From the NCBI GenBank assembly GCA_016926735.1, contig JAFGOA010000139.1:1-13212 (forward strand): a DNA stretch of 13,212 nucleotides, in the 5' to 3' direction. The notes beneath the pieces were generated by a model. It was not told the origin of the DNA, did no database searches, and saw only the letters and a list, made by a program, of their open reading frames with translations. Origin of the DNA: Promethearchaeota archaeon (lineage in GTDB: Archaea; Asgardarchaeota; Lokiarchaeia; Sigyniarchaeales; SOKP01). Every line of letters starts with the position of its first letter. Position 1 is the stretch's first letter. This document shows, in pieces, positions 1 through 8,934 of this stretch. The translations under genes and the position numbers were made by a program.

Positions 1-2152
1 AATCTAAATCAATCTGATACTCACTTATAGGTGTGGTAATTAAACCTGTTGGAGGATCTGGAGGTATAGTATCTGCTAAAGGTTCTATTCCATAGAGTAA
101 TATTCCATTATCGAATAAAGGTATGAATTTCGTTATCCGATTCTCATTTAGAGTTAAATTTTGAAAAGACCAATCATTTGTAGGATCCCACCCAGAAGGG
201 TCATTTGGGATTAAATTAAACAGAATTTCAGTTTGTACAAAACATTTATCCAATCCTCCAGGGAAGATCCTTGTACCAGATAAATCTACTATGATATAGT
301 ATATATCATTATAATAATGATATAACTCAGATAAGGAAGCATTAGCCCAAGGATCGACATAATTAAATGAAATCGAGAGATTATCTATTGTATAACCTGC
401 TGTAAATAATTCACTTAAATTTAGAAAATATCTATAAGATAATTTATCTTTAATCTGAGCTGGCCAACTACCATGATTTATAATATCAATATGAATAACT
501 GTACTTGTAGGTTGGTTTGAATTAATATTAGCATAACTATAATATTCTAAAAGGCGTTCTTCTTGAGGTTTAAACCATGCTATAGGAAAATTATTATGTA
601 TTTCACCACCAAATAATAGTGACATTTTAGCTAAAGCTCCGATTAAACCAGAATTATAATCCAAAGCTACCTTATTATAATTACTTGTTCTATCATCATT
701 AAAGTTATCATTTAAATCTGGACCAGATATTAATGCACCATAGAGAACATGTCTAGTTTCATTTGGATATTGATTATGATTATTTCCCCATGATCCATGA
801 GCAGTACTATGTTGAGGATTGATTGGAGGATTTATACCAAAACCACAAATATAGCTACTATTTCTTGGATTATTACCTAAAATATAATTTATTTGATTCT
901 GACCAAAATTGGAATATATAGAAATATTTAAAGGAGTACATAAAGGATCGTCACTCCATACAAAAGATAAATAGGCAGCATTTGCAGAAAATTTTAGAAA
1001 TCCTTCTCCAAAATTATTAAAATATGCTAAACCTCCTTCTGTATAGGATATGCCATTTATCCACCAATCTAAATTTCTCTCAATAGATTGAACAAAAGTT
1101 TGATTATGAGTCAATCTTGCAAGAAAGATTTGTGCCATATAATGCATATCATTCCATGAATGCGTAGATTTATATTTCCAATATTGTTCTTCTCCTTGTT
1201 CCTTTTCCCAATGATAAGATGATAATAGTGCATCATTTAGATAAATTGAATCATTGGTTTTGACATATAAAAGAACTCCTGCTGTCGATAATTCATCCCA
1301 AAATTCATTCTGTGTATTATATTTTGAGCCTACAATAGAATTATAATATATATCAGATTGAGCAGTCCAAGCTAGATTGTAAAGACCAATTGCATGGTTT
1401 AGACAAATATTTGCATATTCATAATTAGAATTATTAAAAATTATTGATGCAAATGTAAGAGCTGCTGCAGTTGCCCCGCATACAGAGGACCCTCCATGTG
1501 TAGAATTTACTTTAAAAGCAGGACGAGATAATAATTCTTCTATAATTTCTACTGGAGCCCATATTTGTTCATCTTGTATAATATCTCCAACTTGAAAATA
1601 AAATTCATTAGGAGTAGAATGACATTTTATAAAATAATCTGTAGCCCATTTAATTGTATTATTTAATTCCTCTAATTGATTAGTATCAAAAAATGCATTC
1701 TCATACTCATAAATAGCCCAAGCTAATGTAGCTACTGTTGAAGCGATAGGTAATCCAAATTTTACATTGCTACTACCATCATAAAATCCTCCTGTAAGAT
1801 CTAATCCAACATCTATTCCATCATCTAAACAAGAATCTCCTCGCCAAATAACAGGATTATTTTCATCTAAATCTCCTGACTTTTGTTGCTTATAGAAGTA
1901 TATAGCCTTTTGTAGAGCTGCATAATAATTATCCCAGTCTTCTTCAGGTGGGTTCCAATATGCATTTTTTAAGTATAAATCTTCATTCTCATAATTTTTA
2001 TATTCATTAAAAGGATTGATGGATAATAATTGATAAAAAACACCTAAGAAAGTAGATAAAAAAATAATTAAGACAAAAAAAAAAGCATATAAGAATCCCT
2101 TTGCTTTTATTGATTTTTTTTTTTTTAAAATTAGTTTTTTATATATTTTCAT
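1..2152 (-). CDS. Secreted or membrane-anchored GH9 endoglucanase-like protein (GH9-CBM3c-Fn3...), probably catalytically inactive; 3' end lies outside the window
   Basis: Manual translation from ATG 2152 is open for 717 codons to the window edge. N-terminus MKIYKKLILKKKKSIKAKG-FLYAFFFVLIIFLSTFLGVF (basic then hydrophobic). GH9 motifs: NYYAALQKAIYFYKQQKSG, WRGDS, DLTGGFYDGSSNVKFGLP, KWATDYFIKCH, QVGD, WDEL, QINYILGNNP, SYICGFG, TAHGSW, HVLYGALISGP, VALDYNSGL. CBM3c motifs: NHGSWPAQ, SYRYFLNLSE, YYIIVDLSGTRIFPGG, WDPTNDWSF, LYGIEP. Fn3-like start: DTIPPDPPTGLITTPISEYQIDLD. Confidence 0.93.
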   Translation of the reverse strand, partial: MKIYKKLILKKKKSIKAKGFLYAFFFVLIIFLSTFLGVFYQLLSINPFNEYKNYENEDLYLKNAYWNPPEEDWDNYYAALQKAIYFYKQQKSGDLDENNPVIWRGDSCLDDGIDVGLDLTGGFYDGSSNVKFGLPIASTVATLAWAIYEYENAFFDTNQLEELNNTIKWATDYFIKCHSTPNEFYFQVGDIIQDEQIWAPVEIIEELLSRPAFKVNSTHGGSSVCGATAAALTFASIIFNNSNYEYANICLNHAIGLYNLAWTAQSDIYYNSIVGSKYNTQNEFWDELSTAGVLLYVKTNDSIYLNDALLSSYHWEKEQGEEQYWKYKSTHSWNDMHYMAQIFLARLTHNQTFVQSIERNLDWWINGISYTEGGLAYFNNFGEGFLKFSANAAYLSFVWSDDPLCTPLNISIYSNFGQNQINYILGNNPRNSSYICGFGINPPINPQHSTAHGSWGNNHNQYPNETRHVLYGALISGPDLNDNFNDDRTSNYNKVALDYNSGLIGALAKMSLLFGGEIHNNFPIAWFKPQEERLLEYYSYANINSNQPTSTVIHIDIINHGSWPAQIKDKLSYRYFLNLSELFTAGYTIDNLSISFNYVDPWANASLSELYHYYNDIYYIIVDLSGTRIFPGGLDKCFVQTEILFNLIPNDPSGWDPTNDWSFQNLTLNENRITKFIPLFDNGILLYGIEPLADTIPPDPPTGLITTPISEYQIDLD

Positions 2153-2169
2153 AGTGGGATTATAACTGT

Positions 2170-2189
2170 AAATATATTTTATATAAAAT
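2170..2189 (-). promoter_or_regulatory. Putative archaeal TATA box for the GH9-like gene
   Basis: The minus strand reads TTTATATAAAATATATTT, with TTTATATA (2187-2180) 28-35 nt upstream of ATG 2152. The same 18-mer lies upstream of the GTPase gene. The AT-rich background limits confidence. Confidence 0.45.
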
Positions 2190-2582: not shown

Positions 2583-3908
2583 TTAATTTTGTAAAGAACT
2601 CATGTGATTAATTCTTTTTTGTAATAAACTACGTGTACCTATATCTTTTCTGTGAAATAATTTCCCTTTTATAAATCCAACTGCTTTTTCAGCTATATTT
2701 TCAGCTTCTTCTAATGAATTAGATATACCTAATACACCCATTGCCCTTGAACTAGTTGTAAAAATATTTTCTCCTTTTTTATAAACTGAAGCATAGTAGT
2801 ATCTGGCTCCGATTTTAGATATTTCTTTATCGTTGATTTCTACTAATTCATCTTTTTTTGGTGATATTGGATATCCTTCTGGAGCCAAATATTTACAAAC
2901 TGTAGCTTTTTTTTCAAATTCTATAGTAAAATTAAGATTTTCATTGATGATTCCTTTACAAATATCTAAGAAATTAGTTTTTAAAAGTGGAAGGATATTC
3001 ATTGCTTCAGGATCTCCTAATCTTGCATTAAATTCAATTATCTTTATTCCATTTGAAGTTTTTATGAATTGGCCATATAGAAATCCTTTATATTTAACAC
3101 CTGTTTCAATCCTAATTGCATTTACTACTTCCTTCATATCATTCAATGCATCATTGATATCATCTTTAGTAATAAATGGAAGTAAATGATCTTCTATAGA
3201 ATATGATCCCATTCCTCCTGTATTTGGACCGTCATCATTCTCAAAAGCTCGTTTATGATCTTGGACAAGAGGAGTTCCAATTACATTTTTTCCATCAACA
3301 AATGTTTGTAAAGTAAATTCTTCTCCATCAATTTTTTCTTCAAGTATAAAATTATCATTATTTTTAATGATTTCTTCACAATATGTTAAAATATCTTCTT
3401 TAGAGAAAAGATGATCTCCATATACCTTGACTCCTTTACCCCCTGTCAATCCATCTGGTTTTACAACTATTGTTTCTTCACCATTACTATCAATATATTC
3501 CTCAACACCATCTAATGAGTTAAATTTCTTAGATTTAATATTTGATTTTATATTGTATTTTTCCAATAATTCTCTCATAAAGATTTTTGAACCCTCTATT
3601 TTAGCTGCTTCAATTTTAGGACCAACACATGGAATTCCATTATCTTCAAGTCTATTTACTATTCCTTTACATAAAGGATCTTCAGGCCCAATAACCACGA
3701 AATCAATTTTATTATTTTTACAAAAATTTATTATTTCTTCAAAATCTGTCTCTGAATGAATTATTATTCTGTTATTACTCAATTCATCCAATCCAGCATT
3801 TTTAAAACTCATAAAGGCGTAAAGATCTACACCAGCTTTAGCAAGAGCTTCCCCAATAGCATGTTCTCTTGCTCCATGGCCTATAATTAAACAATTAGTC
3901 ATCTTCAT
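2583..3908 (-). CDS. purD: Phosphoribosylamine--glycine ligase (GAR synthetase), archaeal type
   Basis: Motifs LIIGHGAREHAI, VVIGPEDPL, AAKIEGSK, VVKPDGLTGGKGV, VQDHKRAFENDDGPNTGGMGSYS, IEFNARLGDPEA, CKYLAPEGYP, HRKDIG. The start may instead be the second Met (3902). Confidence 0.97.
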   Translation of the reverse strand: MKMTNCLIIGHGAREHAIGEALAKAGVDLYAFMSFKNAGLDELSNNRIIIHSETDFEEIINFCKNNKIDFVVIGPEDPLCKGIVNRLEDNGIPCVGPKIEAAKIEGSKIFMRELLEKYNIKSNIKSKKFNSLDGVEEYIDSNGEETIVVKPDGLTGGKGVKVYGDHLFSKEDILTYCEEIIKNNDNFILEEKIDGEEFTLQTFVDGKNVIGTPLVQDHKRAFENDDGPNTGGMGSYSIEDHLLPFITKDDINDALNDMKEVVNAIRIETGVKYKGFLYGQFIKTSNGIKIIEFNARLGDPEAMNILPLLKTNFLDICKGIINENLNFTIEFEKKATVCKYLAPEGYPISPKKDELVEINDKEISKIGARYYYASVYKKGENIFTTSSRAMGVLGISNSLEEAENIAEKAVGFIKGKLFHRKDIGTRSLLQKRINHMSSLQN

Positions 3909-4795: not shown

Positions 4796-5794
4796 TTAGT
4801 CCCCTTCTTTTAAAATATTTTTATTGTTAATAGTCTTTTCATTAGAGCGAAGATTATTAATATCCATTATTGTATTAAGTTTTAATTCGAAATCTTTTTT
4901 TAAGGTTTTTAATTCATTTAAGATTTTGTCGATTGAATCATTCAAAGATTGAATTGGTGTTCTTTTAAGACTAGATATCATATATTCTATAGAAAGAATA
5001 TTTTGGTTAAAATTTGTTTTAATTAAGGGTTTAACTAAATCAAGATCTTTAAATTTATCTTTCGATGGAATTTTTTCATCCACGATAAATTGTTCTTTTT
5101 CTATTTTCTTCTGTGAAACAACTAATGATTTTTTTTTTTGAATTTCACCTATATTTATTTTTGCAGAATTAACTATTATTGACTTAAGATCAGTTTCTGT
5201 TCGATTATTAATTTCTAAAAACAAATTACTTAAATTTTCTATTCCATTATTTTCGAATTCTTCCTTTTTTGTTTTTAGGAAATTATAAACAGCTATGTTC
5301 ATTAAATCTTCGATATTAATTTTTTTTAAAGCAGATATACATACTAAAGGATATTCTGTTATATTTATTTCTTTAATTATTTTATCTAATTTGTTCTCAT
5401 CAATATTAAGATCTAATTTATTTCCAATAAGAAAAACAATGCAATCTGTTGATTTTTTTAGTAAATTATCTAAGTAAATTTTTTTAATATCAGAAATAGT
5501 ATCTTTCGGTTTTGATAAATCAAATACAATAAATGCAATATCAACATTAGTAAAAAAAACTGGATTTAAAGGATTAAATGCTCTCTGACCCCCTAATTCC
5601 CATAAATTTACAGAGATCAATGAATTAGATTTCTTAATAAAATAATCTTTTTTTATAATATTTGAACCTATAGTAGGTATATATCTTTCATCAACTTCAC
5701 TATCTATAATGGATTGAATTAATGATGATTTCCCTACTCCACCATTTCCTAATAATACTAATTTTAAATTTATTTCATTTACTAATTCATTCAT
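4796..5794 (-). CDS. Rab/Ras-superfamily small GTPase with a C-terminal helical extension of about 160 aa
   Basis: G1 LKLVLLGNGGVGKSS, G2 YIPTIG, G3 variant LWELGGQ, G4 IGNKLD, G5 ISAL. No C-terminal Cys prenylation motif (the protein ends ILKEGD). Confidence 0.9.
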   Translation of the reverse strand: MNELVNEINLKLVLLGNGGVGKSSLIQSIIDSEVDERYIPTIGSNIIKKDYFIKKSNSLISVNLWELGGQRAFNPLNPVFFTNVDIAFIVFDLSKPKDTISDIKKIYLDNLLKKSTDCIVFLIGNKLDLNIDENKLDKIIKEINITEYPLVCISALKKINIEDLMNIAVYNFLKTKKEEFENNGIENLSNLFLEINNRTETDLKSIIVNSAKINIGEIQKKKSLVVSQKKIEKEQFIVDEKIPSKDKFKDLDLVKPLIKTNFNQNILSIEYMISSLKRTPIQSLNDSIDKILNELKTLKKDFELKLNTIMDINNLRSNEKTINNKNILKEGD

Positions 5795-5898: not shown

Positions 5899-7395
5899 TT
5901 ATTTAATAGCATATATATGGAAAAACTTTTTTTCTAAATATTTAATAAAATATTCTGGATTTAATTCTCTACTTGTTATTTGAAATATTAAATCCTTTGG
6001 ATAATATATTTTTCCGTATTGATGTATATCTTCTCTTAAGTGATTCAAGAGACTAATAAAATCTCCATTAGAAATCTTTTTTGGAATTTCTGAATCTTTT
6101 TGTAGAATATGATTAAATATTTGAGAAGCATATAAATTACCTAAGCAATATGTTGGGAAATATCCAAAGGCGCCTCCTGACCAATGAACATCTTGTAATA
6201 TCCCATAAGAATCATTAGGAGGTCGTAAATTTAAAAGCTCTTCTGTTTTATTATTCCATAGTTCTGGAAGTTCTGAAATATTTATTTGATCTTTAAAAAT
6301 GAGCATTTCAATCTCAAATCTTAAAATTATATGCAATGAATATGTAATTTCATCTGCTTCTACTCTTATATAAGAAGGTTTTACTGAATTTATTGATCTA
6401 TAAAAATTTTCTTGAGAATAATGATTTAGATTTTTTGGAAATATTTTTTGTAATTTTGGATACCAAAAATGCCAAAATTCTTCACTTTTTCCTACCATGT
6501 TTTCCCACAGTCTTGATTGAGATTCATGGATACTCAGTGATGCTCCACCGGCTAAATTTGTGTTTTGAATCGCCTTCATAAATCCCATATCATATAAAGC
6601 ATGCCCACATTCATGTATTGTGCTGAATAAGCATGTAGGAAAATAGTTCTCCATAACTCTTGTAGTTATTCTAACATCATGAGGGGATAATGATACTGTA
6701 AAAGGGTGATCTGATTTATCCTGTCTTCCAATATTAAAATCAAAACCTAATGATTTAATCATGTTAATACTAAATTCCCATTGTTTATTTGGATCATATT
6801 TTTGTTCTAAAATCTTTTGATCAATTTCTTCACCTGAATTAATAATCTTTTTTAATATGTCTCTAATTTTACTTTTTAGAATAGTAAATAATTTAGAAAT
6901 CAATTCTGAGGACATTCCAGGTTCATATTCGTCTAATAATGAATCATATCTAGTTTTACCAATATTTAATCTATCTCCATATTCTTTCTGAAGGTTAATC
7001 ATCTTTTCTAAGAAAGGTTTAAATATTGTAAATTTATTTTTTTTTCTTGAATTTTTCCATGCGTTATAACCTAATATTGATGTTCTTGCTATATTTTTTA
7101 CTAAATCAATAGGTATTTTTATGGCTTTTTCATATTCTCTTTTTGCTTCTCGAAGAATTGCTGAATCAATTAAGTTTAGATTTTCTATCTTTTCACTTTC
7201 CTTTATAAGTTCTTTAGTCTTATCTGATGTCAATTTTTTATGATATATTTTGCTAACTAATTTGATAAGATTAGATTTATCATTAATTGCTCCATCTGGC
7301 ATATATACTTGTTGGTCCCATTGGAGTAAATTATTTAGGTAATTTATTTTTTTTAATTCTGAGAATCTTTTTCTTAGCTTGTTTAAATTACTCAT
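5899..7395 (-). CDS. Carboxypeptidase, family M32 (Taq/Pfu carboxypeptidase-like)
   Basis: Motifs LLQWDQQVYMP, YDSLLDEYEPG, GRQDKSDHPF, DVRITTR, HECGH (HExxH), HESQSRLWEN, IRVEADE, LQDVHW, GYFPTY. ATG 7395 is preferred over TTG 7404 from the track. Confidence 0.96.
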   Translation of the reverse strand: MSNLNKLRKRFSELKKINYLNNLLQWDQQVYMPDGAINDKSNLIKLVSKIYHKKLTSDKTKELIKESEKIENLNLIDSAILREAKREYEKAIKIPIDLVKNIARTSILGYNAWKNSRKKNKFTIFKPFLEKMINLQKEYGDRLNIGKTRYDSLLDEYEPGMSSELISKLFTILKSKIRDILKKIINSGEEIDQKILEQKYDPNKQWEFSINMIKSLGFDFNIGRQDKSDHPFTVSLSPHDVRITTRVMENYFPTCLFSTIHECGHALYDMGFMKAIQNTNLAGGASLSIHESQSRLWENMVGKSEEFWHFWYPKLQKIFPKNLNHYSQENFYRSINSVKPSYIRVEADEITYSLHIILRFEIEMLIFKDQINISELPELWNNKTEELLNLRPPNDSYGILQDVHWSGGAFGYFPTYCLGNLYASQIFNHILQKDSEIPKKISNGDFISLLNHLREDIHQYGKIYYPKDLIFQITSRELNPEYFIKYLEKKFFHIYAIK

Positions 7396-7503
7396 TTTTA
7401 ACAATTCTATATTTATTAATAATCCCTTTTACGTAAAATGTATATTTAAGATAATAAATTAGGTTATTTTTATTTTTCAAAGTAAATATCTTATTTTGTT
7501 ATT

Positions 7504-8934
7504 TTATTCGCGTTTTAAAAATAATCTAACTGCTGTTTTTAAATCATCGATAGTTAACTCTCTTTTAAGTGAATTTTTCATTTCAGCTATAAAACGATTG
7601 CACAATTCTAAACTTAGTGAACTACCTTGATTTTGAATCATTTTTTGCAAATATAATCCTTTATTAGGAATATCATCAAAATTCTCATATTCTTTCTTAA
7701 AGATATTATTAATATCTTTAGTTTCTTGTATATCTCCCAATTGAGTCTTCATATGTATTGTTTGCAAATCGTCATCCCTAATTTGCGATAAATCTGATTT
7801 TGGAGTATTTTTAACTTGATTATTTATTTTAGGAAGTGATTTAATTTTTATTTCTTTAGTAAAAGTAATTTGTTTGGGAGGAGCAAATTTCATTTTCCTT
7901 TCTAATTTTTTTCTTATATCAGATTTCTGAGAAATTTCTTGATTTATATCATTTATTTTTTTTTTTAGAATTTCAAATTGATCAAAATATTGGTATTTAT
8001 TTGCAATTTCAAGTAACTCTTTATATTTAGTTAACGCTTTTACATGATTGTTCTGTTGAATTGAATTCTCTGCTTCTAATAATAATTCATTATATTCATT
8101 TGGTAAAGAGCTCTTTAATTTTAAATCATTACTGATGATTTTCAGTATTTTTTCTTTCACATTTAAATCATTCAAAGATAAAAAAAAAATATTATTAATA
8201 TTAAGTTCAGTAATTATTCTTTTTTTATCATTTTCATCTACTAGATCAATTTTATTTGCAATTATTATAAATTTGGATAGGGGACTCTCTTTTTTTTTTA
8301 AGGTTAAATAATAATCTAATACATTTAAATTATAGTTGGAAGCACTAAAAAGAAAAATAATTAAATCTGAACCACTTATTATTTTAGACCATAGAAGAGA
8401 GAAATTATCTTTTAGTTGAAAATCCCAGACATCAAAACTTAAATCATAAATCTCAAATGTAGATATTTTAGCAAAATTCATTACCTTTTTTTCTTGCTTT
8501 TTATTTGTCAATATATCATAAAGTTTAGATTTTCCTGCATTTGAAGGTCCAATAATGGATATCTTACTGTGTAAATCTGCTTGAAGACTTATAAAATAAT
8601 TAATAAATTCTTGTTTATTAGAAAGATTATTTAAAAGCTTAATATCTGGAAAAAAAAAGTGAAATTTTTTTACAATATTCTCTAATATTTTTTCAATATA
8701 TTCTTTTGGATCTATAAGGTCTGTAACTATTAAAAATATCAAATTATTTAATTTTTTATAAAAAATTAGATATTCAGATATTCTACGCGAAGTGATTATA
8801 TCTATATTCGATAATTGTATACTTTCCATAAAAGTATATACAATATTATTAATCTCGTTATCATCAAATGCAAGGGCTAATGTATATGAAAAGAGTCTTT
8901 CTCTGTTGAAATATATATGAATTTGACGTAACAT
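7504..8934 (-). CDS. Longin-like domain fused to a degenerate small GTPase, a TPR/MIT-like helical segment and a small C-terminal helical domain
   Basis: Residues ~1-120 follow a longin/adaptin-small-chain pattern (MLRQIHIYFN...YLIFYKKLNNLIFLIVTD...IEKILENIVKKF). G1 ISIIGPSNAGKS (Gly at 8550), G3-like VWDFQ, SGSDLIIFLFS, G4 IIANKID. This is followed by YNELLLEAENSIQQNNHVKALTKYKELLEIA. Confidence 0.8.
   Translation of the reverse strand: MLRQIHIYFNRERLFSYTLALAFDDNEINNIVYTFMESIQLSNIDIITSRRISEYLIFYKKLNNLIFLIVTDLIDPKEYIEKILENIVKKFHFFFPDIKLLNNLSNKQEFINYFISLQADLHSKISIIGPSNAGKSKLYDILTNKKQEKKVMNFAKISTFEIYDLSFDVWDFQLKDNFSLLWSKIISGSDLIIFLFSASNYNLNVLDYYLTLKKKESPLSKFIIIANKIDLVDENDKKRIITELNINNIFFLSLNDLNVKEKILKIISNDLKLKSSLPNEYNELLLEAENSIQQNNHVKALTKYKELLEIANKYQYFDQFEILKKKINDINQEISQKSDIRKKLERKMKFAPPKQITFTKEIKIKSLPKINNQVKNTPKSDLSQIRDDDLQTIHMKTQLGDIQETKDINNIFKKEYENFDDIPNKGLYLQKMIQNQGSSLSLELCNRFIAEMKNSLKRELTIDDLKTAVRLFLKRE

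Follow-up and report, generated by a model that had tools for sequence, protein, structure and literature searches.

The contig JAFGOA010000139.1 of the Promethearchaeota archaeon assembly GCA_016926735.1 (Lokiarchaeia, Sigyniarchaeales, SOKP01), a stretch of 13,212 nucleotides referred to here as the window, carries at one end part of a gene for a surface protein with a family 9 glycoside hydrolase domain (GH9) and a CBM3c carbohydrate-binding module. Alignments to solved structures and a predicted model support a GH9 pseudoenzyme whose fold has been retained and whose catalysis has been lost, and the disarming substitutions are held under purifying selection. The protein is probably the dead GH9-CBM3c ectodomain of a receptor-regulator pair, a reading to which we give a probability of about 0.6.

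The GH9 frame and its active site

The gene was found as a minus-strand frame at positions 2..2152, beginning with ATG and running for 717 codons without a stop until it leaves the contig open. The window is the entire contig (C186) of a genome of 3.88 Mb in 238 contigs (G000), and by our own estimate the chance of such an open frame at ~30% G+C is ~1e-26. The original prediction, made from the sequence of the window, had called the gene an intact frame hidden from the open reading frame (ORF) track. The frame proved intact, and the gene is indeed missing from the list of closed ORFs, but for the trivial reason that it is 3'-open at the contig end. The positions given for the DGSS, PQHS and AAG sites (1780-1769, 817-806 and 673-671) all agreed with the sequence and its translation.

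Pfam Glyco_hydro_9 was matched by residues 76-507 (632..1927, minus strand) with an E-value of 6e-111 and 372.3 bits against a cut-off of 27.7, over model positions 1-444 of 444; the (alpha/alpha)6 domain so delimited was also recovered in alignments to solved structures and in the predicted model. CBM_3 was matched by residues 540-620 (E 6e-6), inside a linker and CBM3c region of about residues 520-692 (77..595, minus strand). The best solved relatives are the theme-B GH9-CBM3c proteins Cel9G (1g87, E 4e-143), CelR (7unp), BlCel9A (8u49) and Thermobifida fusca Cel9A/E4 (1js4, E 1.5e-128). The alignments run through the CBM3c of 1g87 and 1js4, reaching residue 605 of the latter, and the fusion of CBM3c to the catalytic domain that is typical of theme-B GH9s was seen with Pfam, in the alignments and in the predicted model. 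The AlphaFold2 model of residues 71-692 had a predicted local distance difference test score (pLDDT) of 93.0 and a predicted template modelling score (pTM) of 0.91. Foldseek placed it on Cel9G, both modules included, with a TM-score of 0.94 and a root-mean-square deviation (rmsd) of 1.7 A, in line with the retained fold that had been proposed.

Residue equivalence was taken from the HMMER alignment to T. fusca Cel9A/E4 (1js4) and mapped by hand; the alignments to Cel9G, CelR and BlCel9A concur with this mapping. In TfCel9A, D55 and D58 form the catalytic Asp pair, with D58 as the base, and E424 is the catalytic acid of this inverting type of enzyme. D55 is present as D125, and D58 is replaced by S128, within the sequence DGSS (D125 G126 S127 S128; 1769..1780, minus strand) that stands for the DAGD of active GH9s. 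E424, the Glu of the NEVA motif, is replaced by Lys494 (AAG codon at 671..673, minus strand), where 33 of 33 canonical rows have Glu. Both equivalences had been proposed in the original prediction.

At least 11 cleft residues are replaced besides these two catalytic positions: H59 by N129, the substrate-binding H125 by E195 (codon at 1568..1570, minus strand), F205 by K277, W209 by Q281, W256 by S329, D261 by N334, W313 by F381, R317 by K387, Y318 by F388, H376 by Q447 and R378 by S449. The last two changes turn PHHR into PQHS (806..817, minus strand), with H377 kept. F476, the aromatic residue at the junction of catalytic domain and CBM, is Ser550. In Cel9A, W209, W256, W313 and F476 presumably form an aromatic platform along the cleft and the junction; its positions are here occupied by Q281, S329, F381 and S550. 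Retained relative to TfCel9A are D55, Y206, W260, D262, H377 and Y429. A two-residue insertion (E383, G384) after the W313 position overlaps a GEG loop (residues 382-384; 1001..1009, minus strand), which is found in seven of the eight disarmed proteins described below.

A clade of disarmed GH9 proteins

Seven GH9 matches were found in the genome. Five are canonical (C177, C192, the cut copy C103, and C6 and C117, which are of the Ig-like type), so that the genome does hold paralogues of the canonical kind, for which the original prediction had proposed to look. The two disarmed copies are the window gene and C42 (NDGGY / NINHR / TGVA). Genus-wide, eight distinct disarmed proteins (11 tree rows) were collected, in four subtypes: DGS(S/N)N...N(K/R)VA, DGSGS...TSIA, NDGGY...TGVA and DDDGY...NRVA. 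The gene of the fourth subtype (G009:C33:30311-32443; DDDGY / KIRHS / NRVA) has one internal TAA in the match, explained perhaps by a damaged gene or by a fault in the assembly.

A quick tree was calculated with IQ-TREE (LG+G4, 44 rows, 618 columns, two fragments omitted, catalytic columns kept in). All 11 disarmed rows formed one clade (SH-aLRT 99), sister to the dockerin-bearing canonical GH9s of the same genus, and the branch to the subtype of the window was long (0.32). D58, H59, H125, W256, H376 and E424 are lost in all eight disarmed proteins and kept in the 18 canonical sequences compared, with the exception of one Arg at W256. Position 205, which is Phe or Tyr in those 18 sequences, has lost its Phe in all eight, one subtype having an aromatic Tyr. 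Lys494, which according to the original prediction could favour an anionic ligand, stands at a former acid position where Lys or Arg is found in the subtype of the window and one other only, with Ser or Gly elsewhere in the clade.

The eight proteins were also scored over 122 columns with at least 85% conservation in the 33 canonical GH9 rows. In all disarmed proteins 81 of these columns are kept and in all but at most two a further 16 (97/122 in total). Eleven are kept in two disarmed rows or fewer (positions 126-129, 195, 345, 388, 447, 476, 490 and 494), and catalytic-centre positions make up eight of these 11.

In a search of 5.8 billion proteins, the only non-canonical GH9s among the best 120 of 1491 matches were the query and the proteins P0002, P0005, P0006 and P0007. 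A profile of the disarmed clade was run against 1.84 billion representatives; of the 150 matches listed, 143 were new, and 109 of these 143 had a full GH9 domain; none of them lacked the Asp pair or the Glu, save three truncated sequences. Across the 121 genomes of the order and these protein searches, the clade was seen in the genus of the window only. The literature searched, which excluded supplementary files, held nothing on a GH9 pseudoenzyme, a Lokiarchaeal GH9 or an Asgard cellulosome.

Orthologues and selection

Close GH9 relatives occur in five of the 121 genomes, four of them in the genus of the window (G000, G006, G009 and G034) and one in another family. The orthologue G034:C481 is 90% identical and has DGSSN, PQHS and NKVA; G009:C222 is 63% identical and has DGSNN, PQHS and NRVA. 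The DGS-type, PQHS and N(K/R)V substitutions are thus carried by orthologues, as the original prediction had asked. Residue 494 is K in the former and R in the latter, and the His125 position varies among the orthologues (E, D, R).

The ratio of non-synonymous to synonymous substitution rates (dN/dS) between the window gene and G034:C481 was 0.216 (NG86) or 0.119 (YN00) for the whole alignment. By domain, the NG86 and YN00 values were 0.187 and 0.075 for GH9, 0.185 and 0.097 for CBM3c, and 0.41 and 0.56 for the N-terminal 74 residues. Two catalytically intact paralogues of the same pair of genomes gave 0.231 and 0.124, and 0.173 and 0.108. For pairs with saturated dS, NG86 values alone were used. 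The expected purifying selection was therefore observed, dN/dS being far below 1 and matching that of intact paralogues. The substitutions are shared by orthologues in two other genomes and the lost conserved columns cluster at the active centre, as had been argued against a single sequencing error or random decay.

The probable remainder of the surface protein

The full-length clade members P0002, P0006 (= C42) and P0007 share a layout of hydrophobic N-terminus, GH9, CBM3c, two to four fibronectin type III (Fn3) repeats, transmembrane helix and tail. For two of these proteins the hydrophobic N-terminus also registers in a hydropathy scan. Each has one strong transmembrane helix, followed by a cytoplasmic end of ~110 residues that contains a conserved domain of ~75 residues, here called the tail. 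The active sister GH9s P0003 and P0004 terminate in a type I dockerin instead. The window protein opens with a basic stretch and a hydrophobic segment (residues 1-45; 2018..2152, minus strand), a putative signal peptide or N-terminal anchor in which hydropathy windows starting at residues 18-27 score >2.0. It is cut within the beginning of its first Fn3 repeat (residues 697-717; 2..64, minus strand), which is collinear with the Fn3 repeats of G034:C481 and G009:C222; Pfam detects fn3 in the clade members P0002 and P0005.

The 3' end is lacking because the contig ends within near-identical Fn3 repeats. Window bases 1-62 are covered solely by unitigs of 43-56 nt at a depth of 60-170, the remainder having a depth of 23, which is the pattern expected of a collapsed repeat. 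In G034 the same Fn3 repeat stands at the cut end of C481 and at the start of C615, which continues to a transmembrane helix and tail; in G009 the same holds for C222 and C8. Contig C124 of the genome of the window starts within Fn3, followed by a transmembrane helix and tail, and is 86% identical to C615 and 51% to C8. Of the other GH9 ORFs of the genome, only C192 is left open beyond its GH9 domain, and it finishes in CBM3 and not in Fn3; C103 is cut within the GH9 domain itself. By sequence comparison, C124:1-600 would thus be the continuation of the window gene; the tail of ~75 residues after a single transmembrane helix was observed on C124, and the window frame is cut before that point.

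In G006 (C13 with C244), an NDGGY-type head is followed by a tail and a winged-helix gene whose resemblance is to those of the subtype of the window (54% and 78%) and not to those of C42 (43%). Head swapping or gene conversion between receptor paralogues may account for it.

The tail family

The tail belongs to no Pfam or NCBIfam family, and its best look-alike in the ESM Atlas scored 0.85, below the useful range. A hidden Markov model of the tail, iterated on the ORFs of the genome, found 12 domains in 11 ORFs. In nine long proteins the tail forms the extreme C-terminus after a single transmembrane helix, and eight of the nine have an N-terminal hydrophobic segment. Their ectodomains are pseudo-GH9 (C42, C124), NosD/beta-helix (C30, C41, C129, C207), SBP_bac_5 (C153) and a repeat protein (C144), and the ninth, C19, has an unassigned domain with a zinc-finger-like insert and two tails. 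The cytoplasmic part of this last protein (G000:C19:21084-23210, minus strand) carries a RING-like insert rich in Cys and His (Pfam zf-C3HC4_3, E 0.043) along with the tandem tails.

The other two are stand-alone tail proteins of 85-97 residues (G000:C184:388-678 and G000:C222:41135-41389, both minus strand). One of their genes lies directly downstream of a gene for a large secreted protein and the other near such a gene. These small proteins may compete for the winged-helix partner or represent receptors that have been split.

Of 301 genomes of the phylum, 60 proved to carry the tail. It is present in 56 of 68 genomes of the family of the window (G000 not counted), in one of seven and two of four (weak matches) genomes of two other families, and in none of the remaining families searched. 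Most genomes of two sister genera carry a tail protein of ~264-281 residues, usually one each (for example G003:C61:137446-137664), which again adjoins a winged-helix gene where sampled. This protein may be the ancestral member of the cassette.

The winged-helix partner

A gene for a winged-helix paralogue of ~150-225 residues directly adjoins eight of the nine long tail genes on the same strand. It lies downstream for C124 (27 nt), C42, C19, C153 and C144 and upstream for C30, C207 and C41; on the short contig C129 no winged-helix neighbour was found. On C124 it occupies 630-1295, 27 nt past the tail ORF and on the same strand, and is 97% identical in G034. A winged-helix neighbour also follows the clade members in G009, G034 and G006, and stands beside all four tail genes sampled in three other genera.

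The AlphaFold2 model of the partner consists of three winged-helix units (pLDDT 91.4). In Foldseek searches with this model, single units resemble ArsR-type repressors (ArsR/SmtB; TMt 0.71-0.79, rmsd 1.5-2.3). The whole partner compared with the tandem winged-helix proteins SelB, Pol III C34, TFIIIC, ScpB and ESCRT-II gave TM-scores of 0.22-0.30. The sub-threshold NCBIfam matches of the partner are all to DNA-binding families (ArsR, Lrs14, Sta1, SdpR and Sso10a).

A complex of the C124 tail and its neighbour was predicted with an ipSAE of 0.76 in three runs, the best of three controls giving 0.00. Among solved complexes 58 of 80 attain this mark, against two of 110 mismatched pairs, a calibration that applies roughly, since own alignments were used here. 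The runs share at least 90% of their contacts, with a pLDDT of 76-77 for the partner. The predicted interface is formed by the first unit of the partner and its residues 106-119, the third helix of the second winged helix; the invariant W112 and H113 of the partner contact the nearly invariant F63 of the tail. The binding of the tail to its winged-helix partner is supported by this model, at the strength of a prediction. Over eight cognate pairs, tail identities were correlated with partner identities (r 0.62), a value reached in 0 of 5000 permutations.

A winged-helix paralogue also occurs within an open frame of 377 residues that begins with a hydrophobic segment (G000:C138:3376-4506, minus strand). 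This frame adjoins a gene for a 657-residue surface protein with a C-terminal transmembrane helix and no tail, and may represent a variant arrangement with a membrane-bound regulator.

Comparison with known systems

The theme-B GH9-CBM3c processive endoglucanases (Cel9G 1g87/1k72, Cel9A/E4 1js4/1tf4, CelR 7unp, BlCel9A 8u49) share family, fold and rigid arrangement with the window protein, at E-values of 4e-143 to 1e-128, Foldseek identities of 39-41% and TM-scores of 0.91-0.94. Unlike these enzymes, the window protein has no catalytic base or acid, and H125, W209, W256, H376, R378 and F476 are replaced. Theme-B GH9s are secreted or dockerin-borne, whereas the members of the disarmed clade are membrane-anchored with a cytoplasmic tail. 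In the GH18 chitinase-like lectins the enzyme fold is likewise kept, the catalytic carboxylates are replaced and selection acts for a non-catalytic role; the proteins described here differ from them in belonging to GH9, and the lectins are soluble.

The arrangement may also be compared with RsgI and SigI of Clostridium thermocellum and relatives, an anti-sigma and sigma factor system which, according to excerpts of the relevant papers, acts as a polysaccharide biosensor with CBM3, PA14, GH10 or GH5 modules (PMC6852018; PMC10328401, PMC12203970, PMC4711584). By analogy with the system as excerpted there, both would have a single-pass protein with a carbohydrate-active module at the surface and a neighbouring gene for a cytoplasmic regulator held inside, and both have several paralogous pairs per genome with different sensor heads. 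The two systems are not homologous. The topology is opposite, with the sensor N-terminal and the tail C-terminal here, and the place of the sigma factor is taken by a protein of three winged-helix units. Neither Pfam nor NCBIfam detected an RsgI domain in the protein of the window or in the ORF of C124 that encodes the tail, and GH9 does not figure among the sensor modules of RsgI that the excerpts of PMC6852018 list.

In transmembrane transcription regulators of the ToxR, CadC and TcpP type, a transmembrane region and a DNA-binding domain are joined in one polypeptide, and such proteins are known in archaea, as stated in excerpts of PMC10269533. As in those excerpts, an extracytoplasmic sensor would be coupled to a DNA-binding-type domain at the membrane; unlike there, the winged-helix units are encoded by a separate ORF and are predicted to dock on the tail. 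No DNA-binding domain was found in the tail by Pfam or NCBIfam. The excerpted text of PMC10269533 makes no mention of Asgard archaea, winged helices or glycoside hydrolases.

Proposed function and alternatives

The original prediction had suggested that the protein was repurposed as a scaffold, adhesin or receptor, or had acquired new chemistry. Of these, the receptor has gained support from the Fn3 repeats, the transmembrane helix, the conserved tail and the paired winged-helix gene. In the receptor-regulator pair that we favour, the GH9-CBM3c head, having lost catalysis, would sit on a single-pass surface receptor and bind an extracellular ligand, probably a cue derived from plant glucan and not cellulose bound along the cleft in the canonical way. 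The winged-helix protein would be held at the membrane by the tail, which would grip its N-terminal unit and, in its second winged helix, the recognition helix. Ligand occupancy would alter this hold and change transcription, the target genes plausibly being the GH9 and dockerin genes of the genus.

Several points weigh against this proposal. The canonical stacking residues of the cleft are gone (W209 to Q, W256 to S, F476 to S and W313 to F), which makes cellulose binding in the known mode unlikely, and cleft positions differ between the 63% orthologues at 9 of 23 sites, about the protein average, so that the cleft is no longer specially constrained. Taken whole, the partner resembles tandem winged-helix proteins that do not act on DNA (SelB, Pol III C34, ESCRT-II, ScpB); it has no Pfam or NCBIfam match that clearly marks a regulator, most matches being below cut-off. 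The correlation of tail and partner identities could arise from co-duplication alone. The window frame itself ends 21 residues into the first Fn3 repeat, ahead of any transmembrane helix, and C124 was assigned to it by orthology (C481/C615, C222/C8) and elimination; an exact overlap of 15-200 nt between the open end of the window and any contig start or end was not found. Footprinting of the upstream region gave no clear operator, G000 and G034 being ~95% alike there and G009 too diverged.

The dead head could instead belong to an adhesin or spacer without a role in signalling, tethering the cell to plant fibre or to surface proteins, with the tail serving in anchoring or sorting. A surface-anchored multi-domain layout with Fn3 spacers would suit this, as would the cohesin-dockerin system of the genome (19 dockerin and 7 cohesin matches) and the conservation of CBM3c and of most scaffold residues. 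We nevertheless consider it unlikely, as a dedicated winged-helix gene accompanies the tail at eight of nine loci here and at four of four sampled elsewhere, as the tail is predicted to bind the product of that gene, and as the loss of the canonical cellulose-stacking residues would be odd in a cellulose adhesin.

A different role for the inner partner, that of a tandem winged-helix adaptor of ESCRT-II-, ScpB- or C34-like kind linking surface proteins to sorting or turnover machinery, is rather improbable. Whole-protein Foldseek matches do include the ESCRT-II subunits 2zme_A and 3cuq_A (E 8e-4), and one paralogue has a very weak Pfam ESCRT-II match (E 0.72). The TM-scores to tandem winged-helix proteins are, however, just 0.22-0.30, the best single-domain matches are to ArsR/SmtB-type repressors and the sub-threshold family matches all point to DNA binding.

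It is highly improbable that the protein is still an enzyme, either hydrolysing through Asp125 (D55) and Glu383 or performing new chemistry with Lys494 on an anionic substrate. D55, D262, Y206, H377 and Y429 are retained, the GH9 domain is under strong purifying selection, and Glu383 appears as a conserved new residue of seven of the eight disarmed proteins, in a loop that would lie next to the +1 region. Against this, H125, H376, R378, W256 and W209 are all lost and position 494 varies within the clade (K, R, S or G); the GEG loop is present also in the NDGGY/TGVA subtype, which has lost both Asp positions as well as the Glu, and is hence not tied to catalysis.

The idea of a pseudogene in decay, or of an artefact of assembly or sequencing, for which the cut at the contig end and the long branch of 0.32 might speak, can practically be dismissed, given 717 open codons at 30% G+C, the same substitutions in the assemblies of two other genomes, dN/dS values of 0.08-0.22, a contig from the probable source run that matches the window over 35-2600 with 0 differences at a depth of 23, and a cut end explained by collapsed Fn3 repeats in three assemblies. 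Sequencing error, decay and a hidden gene were accordingly rejected on the shared substitutions, the low dN/dS and the contig end as cause.

Beyond the receptor-regulator pair of the window gene, a broader proposal can be made tentatively, as one that may well fail. Receptor heads across the system include pseudo-GH9, solute-binding-protein-type and beta-helix ectodomains. It is possible that these represent an undescribed signalling system of one Lokiarchaeal family, with modular single-pass receptors whose shared tail docks a dedicated triple winged-helix regulator, masks one of its recognition helices and lets the regulator go when ligand binds. Archaea would then have their own equivalent of the anti-sigma/sigma pairs, built from new parts, and this would be the first case of a GH9 enzyme turned receptor.

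Other features of the window and the genome

Upstream of the ATG of the GH9 gene by 18-36 nt, an A+T-rich, TATA-like stretch was read from the sequence at 2170..2188 (minus strand). It is conserved in G034 and is a candidate archaeal promoter element. Two metatranscriptome runs from the source study gave no contigs that match the window, a result without bearing on expression.

Two small GTPase genes (Ras/Roc/Arf-type) with long non-GTPase extensions are located in the window at 4796-5794 and 7504-8934 (both minus strand), adjoining purD at 2583-3908 and a gene for an M32 carboxypeptidase at 5899-7404. For another five ORFs of the window, of 201-342 residues, there is no Pfam family.

Examples of the dockerin and cohesin matches of the genome are G000:C117:3389-3544, C147:32813-34162, C154:28-582 and C69:35827-35985. 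One ORF of 2040 residues has three cohesins and a dockerin, and another dockerin lies within an open frame of 11,376 residues. Judged by these domain matches, this Asgard archaeon appears to have a system of cellulosome-like kind.

Implications

Signal transduction in Asgard archaea is, to our knowledge, still sparsely described. One Asgard family is here seen with a repeated and testable unit of two genes, a surface receptor with a conserved tail and its winged-helix partner, and the ectodomain, tail and partner are defined constructs for binding and DNA-binding assays. If the proposed function is true, the window protein would be a natural example within GH9 of an enzyme that became a sensor or binder after its catalytic centre was stripped in one genus. 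It would also open a way to learn how plant polymer may be perceived by this uncultured Lokiarchaeon, which has a cohesin-dockerin system and is apparently cellulolytic.

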